From assembly GCA_021498095.1 (NCBI GenBank), contig JAIZWK010000001.1:720001-752000 (forward strand): 32,000 nt of DNA, written 5' to 3'. The position numbers and the translations under genes are program-made. This DNA comes from Candidatus Harpocratesius repetitus (GTDB taxonomy: Archaea; Asgardarchaeota; Lokiarchaeia; Sigyniarchaeales; Promethearchaeaceae). Shown here in pieces: positions 1,071 to 16,731 of the stretch. The notes below the pieces were generated by a model. The model was not told where the DNA came from. It saw nothing but the letters and a program-made list of their open reading frames with translations, and did not search any database. The stretch's first letter is position 1. The number at the start of each line of letters is the position of its first letter.

Positions 1071-1430
1071 TCATTCATATATTAATTGAAAAATTATTAA
1101 AAAAAAATTTACAATAAATAAAGAAGCAATACCAATAAATGAGATATTTATTATTTGGTAAATTTCATTCATTACTTTCAATAATAATATGTTAATATGG
1201 GCTTCAATTACCATATTGTTAATGTATTTACTCATTTCTAAAATAATAATTCGTTTAATTTCTGAGATTTTAAGAACTAAATATTCAATTAAAATAAAAA
1301 AAATACTTTTAATTGCAATTTTTGGAATAATTTGAATAAAAAAAAAAAGAAAAAAAACAAAAATGCAAAGAAATGTGTAAATTGAAAATAATTTTAGTAA
1401 AAAATCGAATGTATTGCTGAATAGAATCAT
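1071..1430 (-). CDS. Small hydrophobic (putative membrane) protein, possible 4th gene of the GTPase operon
   Basis: 119-codon ORF whose ATG lies 7 nt after the GTPase stop. It has 2-3 hydrophobic stretches, but the sequence is low-complexity and T-rich. Confidence 0.45.
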   Translation of the reverse strand: MILFSNTFDFLLKLFSIYTFLCIFVFFLFFFIQIIPKIAIKSIFFILIEYLVLKISEIKRIIILEMSKYINNMVIEAHINILLLKVMNEIYQIINISFIGIASLFIVNFFLIIFQLIYE

Positions 1431-1437
1431 TTTATTT

Positions 1438-2022
1438 CTACTTCACAATAATTGATGGGAAAATCATTTCTAAGATATATTTAAATGCCTCTATGATCCC
1501 TCTGTTATCTATTGCAATAGTTGGGATTAATTGGACTTTTGATAAGGAATTTAATTGAAAATGTTGATTAATTTCATCTAAACTAATTAAATTATCTAAA
1601 TCTTGCTTGTTTAAACAAATTACAATTGGTAAATCCGAGATTTTTTCCTGTAAATAGAAATTTAATTCATTCCAAGATGAGAGGTTATCATTGAAATATT
1701 TTCTTTGTGAATCGACAACAAACATTATTCCATCTATCCCATAAAGAGTTGCTGGTCTGGTAGACGCATAGAAATCTTGTCCTGTCGCAGTTAAAAGAGA
1801 GATTTTTACTATCCATTCCCCTCCTTTTAATTGTAGTACTCCAAAATCAAAAAAAAGGGTTCTTCCTGTTGTTGTTTCAATCGAAGTTAGTAAGTCTTCG
1901 CGATTAAACGATCTAAATAAATTTTTCAAGCTAGTTGTCTTTCCAGACATAGCACAGCCATAATAAACTATCTTAATCTGAATTTCTTTTTTTTTATAAT
2001 TAATTAACATTTTTATCCCCAT
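1438..2022 (-). CDS. Small GTPase, MglA/Arf-like family
   Basis: G1 GCAMSGKTT, switch I TGRTLFFDF, G3 TATGQ, G4 NKQD. The N-terminal IQIKIVYYG is typical of the MglA family. Start could be 2022 or 2010. Confidence 0.9.
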   Translation of the reverse strand: MGIKMLINYKKKEIQIKIVYYGCAMSGKTTSLKNLFRSFNREDLLTSIETTTGRTLFFDFGVLQLKGGEWIVKISLLTATGQDFYASTRPATLYGIDGIMFVVDSQRKYFNDNLSSWNELNFYLQEKISDLPIVICLNKQDLDNLISLDEINQHFQLNSLSKVQLIPTIAIDNRGIIEAFKYILEMIFPSIIVK

Positions 2023-2912
2023 AAACTTTCAAATGTATCAGATAACTTTGATGTTTTTTCTAAATTTAATAATGAAAAGAAATTTGCACCCCATTCATTC
2101 AAAATAAACTGTAAAATCCTTTCTATAGGTGCATGTTTATAATCAATAGTAGAAAATAAAACCCTAGGAGAAAGATTTGTTTTTATATTTAATGCATCTA
2201 ATATTTGAATTCGATTTAAAATATTAATTGATCTTTTACAAGCATTAAAGAAGTTTAAAATTTCTTTTTTTATTATGTTTTCTTTAATCTCTTTCTCTTC
2301 AATTTCAAAATTCATAATTGATTTTTTTTCTTCTACTGGAATTTTTCGATAATTTGTTCGTTTTGAAATAATTCGCTTCATTTTTTCAATTTCAATTTCT
2401 GTTCTATTTATAGCATTTTCATAAATCCACTTTTCAAGAGAAAGATCAAAACTTGGAAATGACTTACCGACTATTTCTGTTTTTAAGCTTTTTTCATCAA
2501 TTTCAAGCTTTAAAAAATAATCAACAAGTGAGTACATTTTATTATAAATTTTAATATAGTTTGCATAGGAGTTTTTGTCAATAATAACTCCAAATATCCA
2601 AGATTGGAAAGTGGTGATTGTCTCAATTGCTTTTAAAGAGGCGTTAGGAAAACATAAGAATACGTTTCGTTCACTATTTAAATCATTTTCTTCATATTCT
2701 CGAATCTCCAAATAATCACTTAGTTCAATAAAATCAGATAGAAAAATCAAATTATTCCTGAAAGGTATTAGTGATATTAGTTCATTGATTAAATTTTCTA
2801 TAATCTCTTCTTGATCTGATATAATTACAATAGGAATTCTATCTAATAAGCATTTTAATAATAATGATACATCTTCAATTTCTGATTGACTAAAACGATT
2901 TATCAAATCCAT
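2013..2912 (-). CDS. Hypothetical protein with a DENN-domain-like (cDENN/dDENN) pattern
   Basis: 299-aa ORF between the roadblock and GTPase genes. LLLKCLLDRIPIVIISDQEEIIENLINELISLIPF, SWIFGV and FLKLEID resemble the cDENN strand/helix pattern, followed by a helical C-terminus. The CDS is confident; the fold call is tentative. Confidence 0.6.
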   Translation of the reverse strand: MDLINRFSQSEIEDVSLLLKCLLDRIPIVIISDQEEIIENLINELISLIPFRNNLIFLSDFIELSDYLEIREYEENDLNSERNVFLCFPNASLKAIETITTFQSWIFGVIIDKNSYANYIKIYNKMYSLVDYFLKLEIDEKSLKTEIVGKSFPSFDLSLEKWIYENAINRTEIEIEKMKRIISKRTNYRKIPVEEKKSIMNFEIEEKEIKENIIKKEILNFFNACKRSINILNRIQILDALNIKTNLSPRVLFSTIDYKHAPIERILQFILNEWGANFFSLLNLEKTSKLSDTFESLWG

Positions 2913-2923
2913 TGTATTTCACC

Positions 2924-3937
2924 TTATAATAATAATTGGTTGAAAATAGATTCAATTTTTATTGGTGGAACTAATTTTGAGCTATTTTCTGATTCTTTCA
3001 AGATTTTTTCTAATTTATTACAATATTTTGGAATTACTAATCTTAAAAGCCCTAATTTTTGTCTACCTTTTGCGATTCTGGCAGAAAAAATTGCTGATCG
3101 AATTTGATTTATAAATTGAAACTCATCAATACATTCTAATAAAATTGATGTTATATGCATTCTCTTCAATTGCCAAGCACATTTATCTGCTGTATAGAAT
3201 AAAGATTGACTGAGAGTTGCTTCTTTTTCCAAATTATCACTGGTTCTATTCATTTTATTTTCTAAACTTGAGAGAATGAAGCCACCTTCAAAAGTAATGA
3301 ATGTATTTATCAAATCAAATGTATTCCTACTAAAATCATCTAGTAGATTATCTAGTTGATCATATGAAGATTGAGCAAAACTTAATGAAAACATAGGAAT
3401 TCGCTCCTTCTTTTCAACCTCGTCTTTATTTTCTATTGAATTAAGAAATCTTTGCATTTCTTCAGGAGAATAATGTCTCATTGGTGGTTTAAAAGAATTC
3501 TTTGATAAAATAAGACATTTTTTAATTTCAGCTAAACTAGAACGAATTTTTAAAAATATTCCTCCTAAATTTACATTTGATTTCGTTGTTATAGCAACGT
3601 AAAATTCTTCATTTAGATTTTGTAAATTTTGAGCTTGAATGATCTTATTAATTGTGGTGTTTCCATAATTTTTTAAAGGTGTGATTAATATTTTTGCCAT
3701 TTTTCCTTCAATTAATATATATTTTAACTTATTTTGATGTAAACTTAATCCACAATTATAGATTGCTGAGGTCGCAGCACAGATACTAAATAATTCTTCT
3801 TTAGAAAGCCAAATGCCACTATGTTGAATTGGATTTCCGTCTCGTTGTGTTAAAACAACATTATCTACTCCTTTTGTGGCTTTAATAAGATCCAAATAAG
3901 ATTTTATTTTCATTGTTAGTGAAATTTTCTTCACCAT
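2924..3937 (-). CDS. Tandem Roadblock/LC7 (MglB-like) domain protein
   Basis: Two repeats of the roadblock pattern (GVDNVVLTQRDGNPI...ICAATSAIY...YILIEG and DLINTFITFEGGFILSS...ATLSQSLF...SILLEC), each ending in an NLG/KLG-L helix. Confidence 0.85.
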   Translation of the reverse strand: MVKKISLTMKIKSYLDLIKATKGVDNVVLTQRDGNPIQHSGIWLSKEELFSICAATSAIYNCGLSLHQNKLKYILIEGKMAKILITPLKNYGNTTINKIIQAQNLQNLNEEFYVAITTKSNVNLGGIFLKIRSSLAEIKKCLILSKNSFKPPMRHYSPEEMQRFLNSIENKDEVEKKERIPMFSLSFAQSSYDQLDNLLDDFSRNTFDLINTFITFEGGFILSSLENKMNRTSDNLEKEATLSQSLFYTADKCAWQLKRMHITSILLECIDEFQFINQIRSAIFSARIAKGRQKLGLLRLVIPKYCNKLEKILKESENSSKLVPPIKIESIFNQLLL

Positions 3938-4576: not shown

Positions 4577-6074
<1,498 letters not shown>

Positions 6075-6165
6075 ACAACGCACCGAAGGTATCATCCTTC
6101 GGGCATTTCTTTTTATATAATTGATTTTAAATTTATTGTTTGACTATTACAACTAAGCTGCTTTT

Positions 6166-6238
6166 GGGCCTATAGCTCAGTTGGTAGAGCGCCTGACTTG
6201 CACTCAGGAGGTCGGGGATTCAAATTCCCCTAGGTCCA
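6166..6238 (+). tRNA. tRNA-Ala(TGC)
   Basis: Cloverleaf: GGGCCTA/TAGGTCC acceptor, GCTC/GAGC D-stem, CCTGA-CTTGCAC-TCAGG anticodon arm, GGGGA-TTCAAAT-TCCCC T-arm. CCA is not encoded. Confidence 0.97.
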
Positions 6239-7719: not shown

Positions 7720-10299
7720 CTATGAATTTTGACTTAAAAGATATTTTATTGCTGGCTCTAATTCGTGAATTATAACATTTTCAATGATTTTTTCATTTGG
7801 TTCTTTGATTAACAAAGGTTGTGATTTATTAAGTAAAATTTTTAATTTTCTATGTAATTCTTTTAATTCTTGCTTGATCAATTTGCTATTTTCAATTATT
7901 TGTTTCTTCTTATCTAATATATCTACAGAAGAATTAGGTGATTGTAATTTTGGCAGATTATATCCTAAGAAAACCTCATCGCTTTTCTTTTTTAATTCAT
8001 TAAGATGAATTTCAATCAAATTGATTATTCTGCTTTCTTCAATATTAAATAATTTAGAATGTGAACTTGCTAAGGTAAAAATGATTTTAAAATCATAATT
8101 AGAGTATTTTAATTCTTTTGGAATAAAAATAACATATCTTTTCTCGATTTTTTCTTTATATAAATTTTTAGAGAGATTTTGATAAGTTTCTTGACAGTAA
8201 TTTTTATACAATTCATTTATCCGTAAACCTAAGGAATAAAAATCCAAAACATGATTTGAATCTTTTTCAATAATAAAAACCTGAAGTGATAATAAATCTT
8301 TATTATCTTGGAGATTTTTCTTAAAATCTTGTATATTTTCATTATCCTCAAAACTATTTTCCGTTTTTAGCGCATTTCTTACAATTTTCAATAATTTCAA
8401 GCCATTAAGACAGTCTTCAATTCTTAATTCAGAATTATGCGATTTTTCAAAAAATTTCTTTAAAAGAATATAGCGCTTTTGAATTTCATTCCATCCTCTA
8501 ACAGTTAATTGCTCATTCTGAATTTTTGATATCAATTTGTCAAAAATGGAGAAAATTTTTGACATAGCTCCCAAGTAGTTATCGCAAAATATGAGTTCTT
8601 CAATTTGGTGAATATGCTTTAATAGGTCTTTATAAATCTCATGCATAATTCTAAGTTTTCTTTTATTAAAAGTCAAAGTTTCTTCTTTTTCTAAGTTGTT
8701 TTGTATTTTTTTCGGTATTTTATCTATTTTTTTAATTAATTTTGGGTAATTAGTAATATGTTCTCTTTTTTTCAGCTTTGACTTTCGGAAAAATTGATTT
8801 TGATTTTTATTCTTTTTAATTATAGATCCTTCAATATTATTCGTGTAAAGTAGAAAAGGTTTTGCATTTGAGTAGGTTTTAATTATACACATCCCAGTAG
8901 GAAGATCTTGAATATTGAATATCTGGTCTTTTTCAATGCCTAAATGATAAATGACATCTTCACTTCTTTCATTAAACTTAAAAAACAGTTTTGTTCCTGA
9001 GTTTAATATTATGTTTTTACTGATATCCAATGAAGTAGTAATCGAAAGGAGCCCTTCTCCTTTTCCTCTTAATAATAATGCTATATCTTCTAAATATAAT
9101 GATACATTCGATAAATTAACAAGTTTATTTGATGCAATGTATGAGACATCCTCAAAAATTGTTAAATGCATTAACTGATCTGTTGGTTTACGATTCATTG
9201 CCATTTCCCAAATCCATTTTAGAATTAAATTGGCAAAGAATATTAAATCTTGCTTTGAACCACCTAACTTTAAAATACTTCCTAAATCGATAACCGTTTT
9301 TCTTTGAAGTATCTCTGAAACTTTTAAAGTTTTATTAGAATCATTAAATACAGCACTTAATGGTCCAGAATAAAATCGTCTTAATCTGTTCTTGATGCTA
9401 ACAATTGTATTTCCAATTTGTGGAATACTATTTTTTAATTGATTTTTTGAATCATCCAAGATTGAAAAGAATTTATTCCATGTCTTTGGTTCTGATGATT
9501 TGCATACTTTATTTAACACATTTACAAGCACACTTTCCATTTGAGGTGAAAATTCTGAATTGAACTCAAGGATTCTACATGATTTTAGGCTATCAAATAG
9601 AATTTCTGCATAATTATCACTAGAAAATATATCCTTATCAAAAAGATTAATTGCAAAATTAATTCCTGGTTCTAGTATTAAAAGATCTGGAATAAATGTC
9701 TGTAATTGGGTATATTCTCCTTTAAATTCAAATAATGTAAATGGAATTGTTTTTAATTTCTTGCTTATTTTTTTTAAGAAATACATAATAAAACTAGTTT
9801 TTCCAGTGCCCGTCTGGCCATAAATTAAAATATGTCTTTTTAATTCTTCAATATCAAGACTAAATTTTTGTAAATAATGATTTTTATAAATGATTACTCC
9901 TAGGGGAATGGATTTTCTTCTTTTTCTTTTTGGTTTTTTTGTAGGTTTATATCCCCACCAAGTACAATTAAAACGTTTTTGGTGAATTCTTTCTATATAA
10001 AAAATACCAATAATAAAACAAAAATCGATAATATAAAAAATTTGCATTTTAATATTAAATTGGATTAAATTCACAAGAAACATAATTAAGTTTTTAAAGA
10101 TAATTAAAAATAATAAGGATTTTATGAAAATTGAGTTATAGATTTTAAATTTTCTCAGTTTCCATATCTGAAATATAAATACACTAAAACTAGCACAAAC
10201 AATACAAATATTTAACACTAAAGTAATTATCCAGAAATTGTTATACGTCATTATTAAGGAATCAATTCTAAAAATTGAGGAAATCACGAGTAAAACCAT
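7720..10299 (-). CDS. Membrane-anchored HerA/FtsK/VirB4-superfamily (DUF87-like) ATPase
   Basis: About three N-terminal hydrophobic helices, RHILIYGQTGTGKT Walker A, SIKNRL motif, degenerate Walker B HLTIFEDVS, and a long charged helical C-terminal region. Confidence 0.75.
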   Translation of the reverse strand: MVLLVISSIFRIDSLIMTYNNFWIITLVLNICIVCASFSVFIFQIWKLRKFKIYNSIFIKSLLFLIIFKNLIMFLVNLIQFNIKMQIFYIIDFCFIIGIFYIERIHQKRFNCTWWGYKPTKKPKRKRRKSIPLGVIIYKNHYLQKFSLDIEELKRHILIYGQTGTGKTSFIMYFLKKISKKLKTIPFTLFEFKGEYTQLQTFIPDLLILEPGINFAINLFDKDIFSSDNYAEILFDSLKSCRILEFNSEFSPQMESVLVNVLNKVCKSSEPKTWNKFFSILDDSKNQLKNSIPQIGNTIVSIKNRLRRFYSGPLSAVFNDSNKTLKVSEILQRKTVIDLGSILKLGGSKQDLIFFANLILKWIWEMAMNRKPTDQLMHLTIFEDVSYIASNKLVNLSNVSLYLEDIALLLRGKGEGLLSITTSLDISKNIILNSGTKLFFKFNERSEDVIYHLGIEKDQIFNIQDLPTGMCIIKTYSNAKPFLLYTNNIEGSIIKKNKNQNQFFRKSKLKKREHITNYPKLIKKIDKIPKKIQNNLEKEETLTFNKRKLRIMHEIYKDLLKHIHQIEELIFCDNYLGAMSKIFSIFDKLISKIQNEQLTVRGWNEIQKRYILLKKFFEKSHNSELRIEDCLNGLKLLKIVRNALKTENSFEDNENIQDFKKNLQDNKDLLSLQVFIIEKDSNHVLDFYSLGLRINELYKNYCQETYQNLSKNLYKEKIEKRYVIFIPKELKYSNYDFKIIFTLASSHSKLFNIEESRIINLIEIHLNELKKKSDEVFLGYNLPKLQSPNSSVDILDKKKQIIENSKLIKQELKELHRKLKILLNKSQPLLIKEPNEKIIENVIIHELEPAIKYLLSQNS

Positions 10300-12685: not shown

Positions 12686-12965
12686 TTTTATTCATAAATG
12701 GATAAATTTTTCGAATTTATAAGAGAGATGATAAATATCATTACACTTTTTTAATTTCATTCTCGTCTTTTCGCCAAATTTTACTAATAATAAAAATTGA
12801 AATTGTTATAAAATAATACTTTTTCGAAATTTGTAATTATAATAAAACTAATTCAGTTGATGTTAGTTTTGTTATGGGATACTGAAATTTTTACGGTATT
12901 CTTATTTAGTATATTAGTAATACATAGATTATTAATCAATATATTGCACTGCGAAGTTGAAAACT

Positions 12966-13973
12966 ATGAGTGTTAGAGAAAGTTTAGTAAAACATTTATC
13001 TACCATCATCCGCTCTTCGAAAGCAACAATAATGGCGCTATTATCTGATGAAAATGGCCTAAGTATTGCTAAGACAGGTCGTAGCACAGATTTAATTCTT
13101 GATAGTAACGCCATTACCAGTGTTTCATCTGCTGCTTTTTCATCAAGCGAAGAAAATTGGACTGATTTAGGGATTCAAGATCAAATTATCGCCTTTTCTT
13201 TTTTTGAAAAAATTTGTCTTATTACTATCCGTATTCAACAAACTCTTTTGACTATTGTTCATGATTATAATCTGGACTGGCCTTTAGATGCAGATAGTAT
13301 AGGCTCAAGTATTTATCACTTAAGACGAGAAATTCATAATTTCTTTGGTTCAGGGGAGATTAGTGAATCTGAAATAGAAGAATTCAGTAATAATGTTAGA
13401 GGCGCGATATATCTAAGTAGCATGGGAACCGAAATTCCATTTGCTTCTTATGCTCCATCAAATCATCAATCATTAGAATTAAATCAGAATATTTCTGCTA
13501 TCTTAGATTCAATACAAAATCCAATATTTATTGAGTATGGGTTAGTAAATTCAAGTGGACTAACAATTGATGCAAGGGATTTATCTCCTGATGATGTAGA
13601 ATTGTTGTCAGTAGATGCTTTTAGTGCAAATGCTAATGTTGGCTTTCAAAAGATGGTAGAGGAAGCAGATTCTATGAATATTGGAGGGTTGGTTTCATAT
13701 CTCTGTGTTTCTGGCCCTGATCCAGAAAATTTCTATGGTATTCTTAGTAATCCTTGTGGAAAACTGCATTTTAAAGATTCAGCAAGTGGTAGTGAGATTC
13801 TTTTACCAGTTTCTTTTGTTTCTTTATTTCCAATGATGTACGGTGCTGTTCCAGTACTGTGTGAAGCAAGAAATATTGCCCATTCTATTATTGAGGTTAT
13901 TGGTGAAGATCATATCACCAAAAAATTTATCAATAGTATCAACGTAATTGTTAAGTCAAAATACGAAGAATAA
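12966..13973 (+). CDS. Tandem Roadblock/LC7-like domain protein
   Basis: N-terminal ALLSDENGLSIA...NAITSVSSAAFSSSE roadblock pattern, and a second repeat YGLVNSSGLTID...DAFSANANVGFQ. ATG at 12966 preferred over TTG at 12957. Confidence 0.75.
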   Translation: MSVRESLVKHLSTIIRSSKATIMALLSDENGLSIAKTGRSTDLILDSNAITSVSSAAFSSSEENWTDLGIQDQIIAFSFFEKICLITIRIQQTLLTIVHDYNLDWPLDADSIGSSIYHLRREIHNFFGSGEISESEIEEFSNNVRGAIYLSSMGTEIPFASYAPSNHQSLELNQNISAILDSIQNPIFIEYGLVNSSGLTIDARDLSPDDVELLSVDAFSANANVGFQKMVEEADSMNIGGLVSYLCVSGPDPENFYGILSNPCGKLHFKDSASGSEILLPVSFVSLFPMMYGAVPVLCEARNIAHSIIEVIGEDHITKKFINSINVIVKSKYEE

Positions 13974-14040: not shown

Positions 14041-14360
14041 AATTGAGGATATTTTATCATTTTTAATTTAAACGCTTTTTTGAATATCATTTATATATAT
14101 CTGACTTAAATGTGAAATATCGCAATTCTTTTTTTGTCGAACTCGATTTTTTCAAAGAATTTGTTAAAAATTTACCATCTTGTTTATAAATTCTTCAATC
14201 TAATGTCTATTTTATTATAATTCTTGATTTACATATCTTGAATTTGGCACCTTGGTAAAATCGACAAAAAATAAGAAAGGATATTTTAGAATTGAGTCGG
14301 GAAAGTTAAGATGATAAAATGAAAAACTTCGAATTTTTAAAATTTAAAATACCCTCAATT
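14041..14360. mobile_element. MITE-like non-autonomous element, copy 1 (320 bp including flanking AATT)
   Basis: Terminal inverted repeats AATT-GAGGATATTTTA ... TAAAATACCCTC-AATT (1 mismatch), no internal ORF, and a second inverted copy at 30630-30948. Confidence 0.8.
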
Positions 14361-15074
14361 GATATTTGAAATTCTTTTCCGGATAGGTTTTTTTGCTACT
14401 GTTTTATTCACTTTTCCCTTTTCTTCAGGATAATAGCGCGTTTCAAAATCATCCCAAGATTTTGAAAAAACATGATTAGTAAATGCTTCCTTCAATCCTG
14501 AAATCTGTTTTAATCGGAGAACTTCATCTTTATCCATTCCTAATTTTTGGCAAATTTTTTCATCACTCCAACCTTGTCGAACTAAATCTAGTACTATATC
14601 AGACATGGAACGAATATGATGCGTTCCTCTCGCTCTATTATGCCGAATGGTAGATCCCATGCGTTCATCTAGTGGTTTATCAATAATAGTTAAGGGAAGA
14701 TGAGCATTTATTCGCTCTTTAATATCTTTGAATTCGCGTCCAACTCGATTTCGGTGAAATCCGTCAACAATTTCATAATTTCCGTTTTCTAAGCGATATG
14801 CGACAATTGGTTGTGTATAACCATCGGATTTAATTGATTCATAAAGAAGTTTCATTTCTGGTTGTGCGACTCTGTTTGGATTGTATGTATTCGCCTGTAT
14901 TTTCTCTATAGGAATCCATAACACTGTATCAACAGGTTCGCTAAATGGGGAAAACTGCGAGATTTGAGTACGTAATTCATTCAAATATGACACTTGTTCT
15001 TCAAATGACATGCTTTCTAGATCTCTACGAATTATTTTTATGATCTCTTTTATATTATTCATTATATTACTCAC
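14355..15074 (-). CDS. ibrB: IbrB/YbdM-like ParB/sulfiredoxin-domain protein
   Basis: PVDTVLWIPIEKIQANTYNPN.VA.PEM.LL..SI..DGYTQPIV, IVDGFHR, STIRHNRARG.H, GWSDEKI...LGMD.DEVLRLKQISGL...F....FSKSW. Confidence 0.88.
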   Translation of the reverse strand: MSNIMNNIKEIIKIIRRDLESMSFEEQVSYLNELRTQISQFSPFSEPVDTVLWIPIEKIQANTYNPNRVAQPEMKLLYESIKSDGYTQPIVAYRLENGNYEIVDGFHRNRVGREFKDIKERINAHLPLTIIDKPLDERMGSTIRHNRARGTHHIRSMSDIVLDLVRQGWSDEKICQKLGMDKDEVLRLKQISGLKEAFTNHVFSKSWDDFETRYYPEEKGKVNKTVAKKPIRKRISNIN

Positions 15075-15138
15075 TTTTGTATTTTCTTTTTATATCTTTA
15101 TCTTTCATATTCTTTTTTGTGTTTATTCCCCTTTTTCA

Positions 15139-16731
15139 TCAATCTTCCTTTTTTTTTCCACATTCAATTGCCTCGATTCTCTTTCGTAATTTCCGTTGAA
15201 TATGACCGTCTCCTGTTAATCGATGTTTTTCACGTAGTTTAATTAAAAGTTCGTCTCCTGCTTTGTCATATCCAAAATCCAGATAAGTCATATAAAAATC
15301 ATTTTTTTCAATCGCTCGAGCTACTGTCTGCCAAGAAACTGATTTTCCTTTTCCTGCATCAGGCATTTTTCCATACGGAATTCCTAGATTCTTTTCACAC
15401 CAAAGCATATAGTATTTTATTTTCTCGTAATAACGTCGCATTATCAATGGTTCATAAATTCCTATAGATTCAAGTAAAAAAATCGTGTACTGTTGCCAGG
15501 TTAAATGATCGGGTTTCATTGAGGTGAGGTTTCCCAATAGAGATGTACGACAGTATATCGCACCAAAATTAACTCCCTCCACCCGCTGCAGTAACCGCTC
15601 CCATGTTTCTGGTTCAATTACTCGATATTGATCCAATCCTGCTTTTTGTGCTGAACCAAATGGTTGACATATTCGCTGGAGCGAAAGAGGAACTCCATTT
15701 TTATACATATCTTCATAAACATGATTATAATCTAAATTAAATTTTGCCACACAACCCCAAATATCTTCTACTTTCCAATCATAAATCGGATATGCATTAT
15801 AAATATTTGGTAATATTTCTGTAGTCCAAAATAATCCCTTATAACGTGGTTTATCTCGGTTTGCTACAGCTAAAAAGCGACGGAGAGATTCATCAGTGCG
15901 AATTCCTACAACTATTGCTGTTCGTTTGGCTTTTTTCGTTTTATGAAGCCATTGTGAGTATTGAAAAATAAAACGGTCAAAATCATTTATGTTTTCAGCA
16001 AAAGGGAAAGGATTATTATCCCAAGTAATAGCACCTTCAGGAATATCTCTTACCCAATGTTCTCTTGCAGATTCATCCCAAGTAATAAACTCAGGATTTA
16101 AAGCTGAGGTAGCATTGTCTTCACAAAACGGTAAACAAATCCAGTAAAAATTTTCACAATTTGGTTTCACTTCTTCACGTAATGATTCCACAAAGCGAGC
16201 AGTCTCCATATACATGGCTTCAAAATCAATGAACATTACAGAAAACTTTTTGCCCATTTCTGCAGCTACCATATTAGCAAGTTGAAGTGTTACCCCCGAA
16301 TCTTTTCCTCCGCTAATGGCAAAGCTTATATTATCAAATTCAGTAAAAAGTAATCGAAGTCGGGCAAAAGTAGCATCTAATACATTTGTTTCATTATATA
16401 TTTTTTTGGATTTTCTCACGTATTTTATTTCAGGCGAAGTTATCTGAGATATTTTTTGTTTGGGTATTTTTCCTTTTTTTGAAGTCTTTTCTTTTTTCTT
16501 TTTTGATAAATCAGAATTAGCTGAGAGACTTCTCTTTGTTTCCATTTTACTTTTTATTACAAATTCTGATTGTTTTTGTTTTTTTTTTCTTTTTAGAGTG
16601 ATTGAATGAGAAGGTTTCGGAATGACTTTCACTGTGTCTTGAAATCCTCTTTCCTTTTTTAGCTGATCAAGAAGTTTAGATTGATTTTTAACTACATTCA
16701 TAAATTCACAGTCACCCCGCCTCTTACCCAT
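15139..16731 (-). CDS. ibrA: IbrA/YbdN-like PAPS-reductase-family PP-loop protein (DUF3440)
   Basis: ISGGKDSG PP-loop, YWICLP, VGIRTDESLRRF, YPIYDWKVEDIW, QRICQPFG, VEGVNFGAIY. It has a Lys-rich N-terminal ~100 aa, and the start may be 16701. Confidence 0.88.
   Translation of the reverse strand: MGKRRGDCEFMNVVKNQSKLLDQLKKERGFQDTVKVIPKPSHSITLKRKKKQKQSEFVIKSKMETKRSLSANSDLSKKKKEKTSKKGKIPKQKISQITSPEIKYVRKSKKIYNETNVLDATFARLRLLFTEFDNISFAISGGKDSGVTLQLANMVAAEMGKKFSVMFIDFEAMYMETARFVESLREEVKPNCENFYWICLPFCEDNATSALNPEFITWDESAREHWVRDIPEGAITWDNNPFPFAENINDFDRFIFQYSQWLHKTKKAKRTAIVVGIRTDESLRRFLAVANRDKPRYKGLFWTTEILPNIYNAYPIYDWKVEDIWGCVAKFNLDYNHVYEDMYKNGVPLSLQRICQPFGSAQKAGLDQYRVIEPETWERLLQRVEGVNFGAIYCRTSLLGNLTSMKPDHLTWQQYTIFLLESIGIYEPLIMRRYYEKIKYYMLWCEKNLGIPYGKMPDAGKGKSVSWQTVARAIEKNDFYMTYLDFGYDKAGDELLIKLREKHRLTGDGHIQRKLRKRIEAIECGKKKED

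Follow-up and report, generated by a model that had tools for sequence, protein, structure and literature searches.

A longin-less DENN-fold protein encoded between a tandem roadblock and an MglA-type GTPase in Asgard archaea

The 299-residue protein encoded on the minus strand near the beginning of the lokiarchaeal DNA considered here (a stretch of 32,000 nucleotides, hereafter the window) is, going by its modelled structure, a genuine cDENN plus dDENN module without a longin; it belongs to the cDENN-dDENN structural family rather than to the canonical tripartite (uDENN-cDENN-dDENN) DENN proteins. It is almost certainly the DENN member of the Asgard roadblock-DENN-MglA operon. That it serves there as an accessory subunit without catalytic activity in a switch of the MglA/MglB kind is suggested by analogy and is, in our estimation, an even bet.

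To our knowledge, regulators of the DENN/folliculin type were long held to be restricted to eukaryotes. The operon and the DENN call are already known, from a published prediction of 2020/21. A three-protein archaeal switch with its cognate GTPase in the operon provides a rare case of an Asgard GTPase that can be paired with its regulators, which is usually impossible (Tran et al., PMC10933270), and the system is therefore open to reconstitution, one possible source being Promethearchaeum syntrophicum MK-D1, whose DENN ortholog (DSAG12_00674 / WP_147661792) is annotated as hypothetical and is named in no literature that we found. Reconstitution would test the scenario of Zhang et al. in which DENN modules originated when a roadblock/longin GTPase-binding fold was joined to cDENN-dDENN.

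The gene and its reading frame

A preliminary description, made by eye from the letters, had proposed a stand-alone cDENN/dDENN-like protein beginning directly at its core. The gene is real and intact: its minus-strand frame runs exactly from 2912 to 2013, from ATG through 299 codons to TAA, with a ribosome-binding-like AGGTGA just 5' of the start (Table 1). N-terminal extension is impossible, and a truncated or mis-started gene is ruled out, by a stop-to-stop frame of 301 codons that closes two codons 5' of the ATG. Homologs with open frames of about 300 aa (292-307 aa from the 5th to the 95th percentile), nearly always single in a genome, occur in 231 of 400 Asgard genomes and in 66 of the 90 of high quality; the gene is therefore no chance frame and the absence of a longin is a property of the family. 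As to 'stand-alone', the term suits the polypeptide only, since its gene stands second of three in a conserved roadblock-DENN-MglA operon corresponding to a published one.

The host is a lokiarchaeon (Asgard) whose genome is a single contig of 4.36 Mb, an archaeal 16S gene being present in the window. The nearest named protein, at 90% identity, is from a Ca. Harpocratesius sp., with the remaining relatives from Promethearchaeota. Four profiles detected no second DENN gene in the genome, the best other match having E 0.014. A scan for sigma-70 promoters and terminators gave 25 sites, with 27.3 expected, from a sigma-70 model that is uninformative for an archaeal host.

Table 1. Coordinates of the operon, its parts and related genes. 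Positions are those of the window except where a genome (G) or locus (L) is named; residues are those of the DENN protein.
Feature	Position	Strand	Basis
Longin-less DENN-fold protein, 299 aa	2013..2912	(-)	ORF, AF2 model, structural search
cDENN-like alpha/beta domain of six strands (residues 1-152); P-loop-like topology, Walker A absent	2457..2912	(-)	Model, structural search
dDENN-like all-helical region, residues 158-275	2088..2441	(-)	Model, structural alignments
C-terminal tail, residues 285-299, low confidence (pLDDT<50), candidate partner-binding motif	2016..2060	(-)	Model, alignment
Tandem roadblock (MglB/LAMTOR2-3-like), 337 aa, first operon gene	2924..3937	(-)	Pfam Robl_LC7, sequence and fold matches
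MglA-type small GTPase, 194 aa	1438..2022	(-)	PDB sequence matches
Hydrophobic 119-aa ORF, 7 bases 3' of the GTPase gene	1071..1430	(-)	ORF list
Further MglA-like GTPases	G000 C1 617841-618530, 2804155-2804820, 3014902-3015537, 3123771-3124511		Profile search
Paired DENN paralogs	L129 190-2249, L131 3046-5149, L132 3205-4972, L133 849-3176		Profile search
Paired DENN paralogs, continued	L134 299-2138, L135 3001-4217, L136 277-1454; G165:C66:68335-70210		Profile search

Fold

The AlphaFold2 model, built from an alignment of 54 sequences, has a mean pLDDT of 89.9 and a pTM of 0.86. Its N-terminal part is a three-layer alpha/beta sandwich of the cDENN type, with strands at residues 28-32, 53-57, 83-87, 105-110, 132-138 and 143-149 and helices between them. 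Three of the motifs on which the by-eye recognition had rested are present as quoted, LIPF (48-51), WIFGV (105-109) and LKLEID (134-139), and the fourth is present as LL-DRIP-IVIIS (residues 22-32), its spacer being of four residues rather than the two originally given; within the alpha/beta domain each of them maps to a strand or a loop of the model (E28-32, E105-110, E132-138). The helical part announced for the region beyond the core is likewise there, and its dDENN-like character was assessed within the full-length model and its alignments, those to FLCN, DENND10, SMCR8 and DENND1 reaching model residues 273-286 and the C-terminal helices of the targets.

Comparison of a predicted structure with DENND1B, FLCN and C9orf72 had been suggested at the outset, and in an exhaustive search of the model against 48,161 PDB chains the six best were all DENN modules (Z 9.8-12.3, 185-212 aligned residues, rmsd 3.6-5.7 A), matched over residues 1 to about 279. 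They were DENND10 (Z 12.3, rmsd 4.8, 191 aligned, target range 157-357), two chains of FLCN (Z 11.7, rmsd 3.6-3.8, 185-186 aligned, target range 347-555), SMCR8 (Z 10.5), C9orf72 (Z 10.1) and DENND1A (Z 9.8, target range 173-367). DENND1B, scored besides these six, had Z 10.1 (target range 172-360). The alignments of the six end at model residues 275-286 and begin past the longin domains of the targets, in keeping with the closed frame upstream and with the claim that no N-terminal longin is present. In a structure-atlas search the best match outside the family was an SMCR8 cluster (TM 0.51), and the neighbours by language-model features were clusters of C9orf72-like, Folliculin_C, SMCR8_C, SPA, DENND11 and Avl9 proteins.

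Searches by sequence, which had also been put forward as a route to recognition, did not on their own pick up the DENN relationship that the structure shows. No Pfam family matched the query at E<=1; in a scan of 54 homologs no DENN-family match stood above the cut-off, with one of the 54 reaching Folliculin_C at E 5e-4; and PDB sequence searches with two profiles gave nothing significant. The want of a Pfam match to DENN, dDENN, Folliculin_C or SPA is due to divergence from profiles trained on eukaryotes. A profile-to-profile comparison by hhalign did link the family to the DENN part of longin-DENN fusions from Hodarchaeales and other Heimdall-type archaea (prob 94.6, E 7e-8, 61 columns). Fold, full-length coverage and this profile link point the same way, to DENN, despite a modest margin (2.5-3 Z units) over the P-loop ATPases that rank next.

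The last residues of the protein end in D-x-x-(E/D)-S-(L/M)-W-G, with W298 present in 61 of 61 members, and this conserved, unstructured SLWG tail is, judging from the alignment, the best candidate for a docking motif.

The operon and its surroundings

Between the end of the roadblock gene and the DENN start lie 11 bases. The roadblock product comprises two mutually similar halves (hhalign prob 88.6, E 2.6e-6), and in sequence and fold it resembles the roadblocks of MK-D1 and Thor archaea, MglB, and subunits of Ragulator. On the other side the GTPase gene overlaps the 3' end of the DENN gene by 10 bases. MglA structures are the only ones in the PDB that its product matches at E<=1e-8 (best 3e-27), and its R54 and Q82, invariant in 61 of 61 members, align with MglA R53, the arginine finger, and with the catalytic Q82. 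The genome has four more genes for MglA-like GTPases (profile E 1e-30 to 1e-34), none of them beside a DENN gene.

The hydrophobic frame that follows the GTPase gene has no Pfam match and lies outside the phylum-wide operon; a hydrophobic frame of similar size is seen in that position only in close relatives (L001, L002, L004, L005, L007), not in distant families. Just upstream of the operon, and divergent from it, are a 16S rRNA gene and a tRNA gene (4577-6238). The window holds no 23S gene. Five relatives within the family (L001-L004, L057) have a 16S gene in this position, which the other loci scanned do not. Elsewhere in the window a second roadblock-like protein of 338 aa (12957-13973, plus strand), unrelated to the operon by profile, has a weak MAPKK1_Int match (E 0.028, residues 14-103). 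The minus strand carries at 7720-10299 an 859-aa ATPase of the HerA/DUF87 type with a hydrophobic N-terminus and a long charged tail, and at 14355-16731 a ParB-like gene adjoining a PAPS-reductase-like gene, the two resembling an IbrA/IbrB pair by eye.

Distribution and conservation of gene order

The DENN gene is present in all 41 genomes of Thorarchaeia type. The order roadblock-DENN-GTPase was found in 90 of the 93 loci read (78 distinct DENN sequences, partly redundant and rich in kin), and the two intergenic gaps have medians of -2.5 and 0 bases. One locus (L130, 329-2646) holds a very diverged copy in which the roadblock-DENN-MglA order is kept, with another small GTPase encoded after it. 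The three exceptions to the order are of a single lokiarchaeal genus (genomes G166-G168; L016, L018, L019, L123). G167 is the sole genome of the genus where both could be placed, and there the roadblock and MglA-type genes are adjacent with the DENN gene on another contig; as the DENN gene is outside the operon while the other two stay together, roadblock and GTPase constitute the core pair. Mirror-tree correlations of 0.96 across the three genes were discounted as evidence because shared ancestry explains them.

Neither the stand-alone DENN gene nor the tandem roadblock was found in the 83 genomes of the Heimdall-type class (Hodarchaeales plus other Heimdallarchaeota), a co-absence that is a single evolutionary event and not many. 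A search for longer fused forms of the DENN protein (542-2000 aa) gave none, which by the search tool's own caveat is weak evidence; there were 94 matches among 1.84 billion representatives, all of <=434 aa.

In 14 of the 83 Heimdall-type genomes there are weak matches to proteins mostly of 326-397 aa, the match commencing at about residue 155-215. These fusions (L064-L080) have an N-terminal extension of 150-180 residues that appears longin-like by eye, and in many of them a GP motif lies close to the N-terminus; their Pfam matches, to C9orf72-like and Folliculin_C, are weak. They are of the FLCN/SMCR8-like longin-DENN kind and by profile their DENN part is homologous to that of the query family; they differ from it in the extension itself, in a shorter DENN part, and in having no roadblock or MglA-type gene in the 1.5 kb flanks read.

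Diverged longin-less DENN paralogs also occur as two adjacent genes, both matching the family profile. Such pairs are rare (in one of 121 species representatives in the class), and the DNA read showed neither a tandem roadblock nor an MglA-type gene next to them; in one of them (L131) a different small GTPase is encoded two genes on. By analogy with FLCN-FNIP, the paired products could form DENN-DENN heterodimers.

What the DENN protein may do

The longin fold and the roadblock fold, both GTPase-binding, are related, and MglA has the roadblock protein MglB as its GAP (PMC3521125). The tandem-roadblock protein would fold as a one-chain MglB-like dimer, bind the GTPase and provide its GAP platform in the manner of MglB with MglA, and would supply in trans the part played by the longin in eukaryotic DENN modules. 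The DENN protein would lack a catalytic site and dock on this roadblock-GTPase module, perhaps by way of its conserved C-terminal tail, perhaps as a dimer, and set where or when the switch cycles. It would then be closer to the DENN halves of FLCN-FNIP and C9orf72-SMCR8, GAPs of a type whose catalytic pocket is formed by the longins (PMC12290439), than to a free-standing GEF. The shared absence of the DENN protein and the tandem roadblock from the Heimdall-type class speaks for this reading; the departure of the DENN gene from the operon in one genus and the paralog pairs that lack roadblock or MglA neighbours speak against it. A complex prediction for roadblock and GTPase with GTP, and DENN as partner, scored 0.19, the mark being 0.32, and is counted neither way.

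Would a protein whose fold is so near that of P-loop ATPases not be better seen as one of them, a PilT/GspE/FlaI-type enzyme that degenerated independently into a pseudo-NTPase and perhaps still senses nucleotide? PilT, TadA, VirB11 and GspE do lead the Foldseek ranking of the PDB, all at E>=0.012, where nothing reached E<=0.001 and DENND1A and FLCN came at rank 14 and ranks 20-21; GspE (Z 9.3-9.7) and FlaI (Z 8.9-9.2), together Z 8.9-9.7 over model residues 1-263, follow the DENN modules in the exhaustive search; and there is a glycine at the end of strand 1 in 52 of 61 members. However, in that search the six DENN chains stand above every ATPase, a Walker A motif (GxxxxGK[ST]) is present in 0 of 61 members, and the link to the longin-DENN fusions is one of sequence. 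The closeness of the ATPases is itself accounted for by the central DENN domain having a minimal P-loop topology from which the nucleotide-binding residues are absent (PMC3521125), and we consider this descent very improbable.

Granted that the protein is DENN, it might be a direct GEF, touching the switch regions of the MglA-type GTPase and expelling GDP in the way that DENND1 acts on Rab35, which would make the operon a self-contained set of GEF, GAP and GTPase. This is in line with the structural match to the GEF domains of DENND1A/B (Z 9.8-10.1), the overlap of the two genes, the conserved surface-type residues R25, R52, D60, E74, R82 and R227, and the GEF role put forward by Liu et al. 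(bioRxiv 10.1101/2020.10.19.343400). It is nonetheless unlikely: in DENND1-Rab35 all three domains, longin included, contact the GTPase (PMC3521125) and the longin is what the query lacks; the client is MglA and not a Rab; and DENND10, FLCN, SMCR8 and C9orf72 match better than DENND1, with small differences in Z. Less likely again is an effector or localisation factor that binds only GTP-loaded MglA, or else an unrelated membrane or cytoskeletal target, and relays a signal without regulating the nucleotide cycle. The DENN gene has been able to leave the operon yet be retained, a tail ending in SLWG suits docking, and there is a precedent in Myxococcus RomRX, proposed as a GEF and later reported to be an effector (PMC13408092). 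Against this, the eukaryotic relatives work within GTPase-regulator complexes, and the close coupling to both neighbours in 90 of the 93 loci suggests a stoichiometric complex.

On a bolder reading, the operon could represent the state of the eukaryotic DENN module before fusion, with the roadblock binding cDENN-dDENN in trans at the longin's place and the two together regulating an MglA-type GTPase, with Heimdallarchaeia having exchanged the split system for fused longin-DENN proteins as forerunners of FLCN, SMCR8 and C9orf72, and with the paralog pairs as DENN-DENN heterodimers parallel to FLCN-FNIP. We hold this larger picture to be doubtful.

Comparison with known systems

Eukaryotic DENN modules (DENND10, FLCN, SMCR8, C9orf72, DENND1A/B) share with the query the cDENN alpha/beta sandwich and the helical dDENN; the query differs in having no N-terminal longin/uDENN, in an identity of 8-13%, in a longer helical region and in its conserved SLWG tail, and in having as its genomic neighbour an MglA and not a Rab, Rag or Arf. 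The bacterial MglA-MglB system of Myxococcus and Thermus likewise has an MglA-type GTPase with an intrinsic arginine finger encoded beside a roadblock gene, but in the archaeal operon the roadblock dimer is fused into one chain and a DENN-fold gene lies between the two. We know of no such third gene in bacterial mglBA operons.

The nearest comparison is with Liu et al. (bioRxiv 10.1101/2020.10.19.343400; Nature 2021), who (Fig. [quoted passage not shown] The three-gene make-up, the range over most Asgard lineages, a DENN protein encoded apart from the roadblock, and a GTPase outside the Rag family are common to that operon and the present locus, and longin-DENN fusions of some Heimdallarchaea turned up in both studies. 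There the GTPase is 'Rab-like' and the roadblock 'LAMTOR1-like', whereas here the GTPase is by sequence of MglA type and the roadblock is a two-domain protein resembling MglB and LAMTOR2-3; 'Rab-like' is in all likelihood a less strict name for one and the same GTPase gene. There is little doubt that the operons are one and the same, an identification resting on composition and distribution and not on an accession match. No experimental study of the operon was found in the literature. What the present analysis adds to the published prediction is refinement: the GTPase is of the MglA type, the roadblock has two domains, the Heimdall-type class has fused forms in place of the split ones, and DENN paralogs occur, rarely, in pairs.
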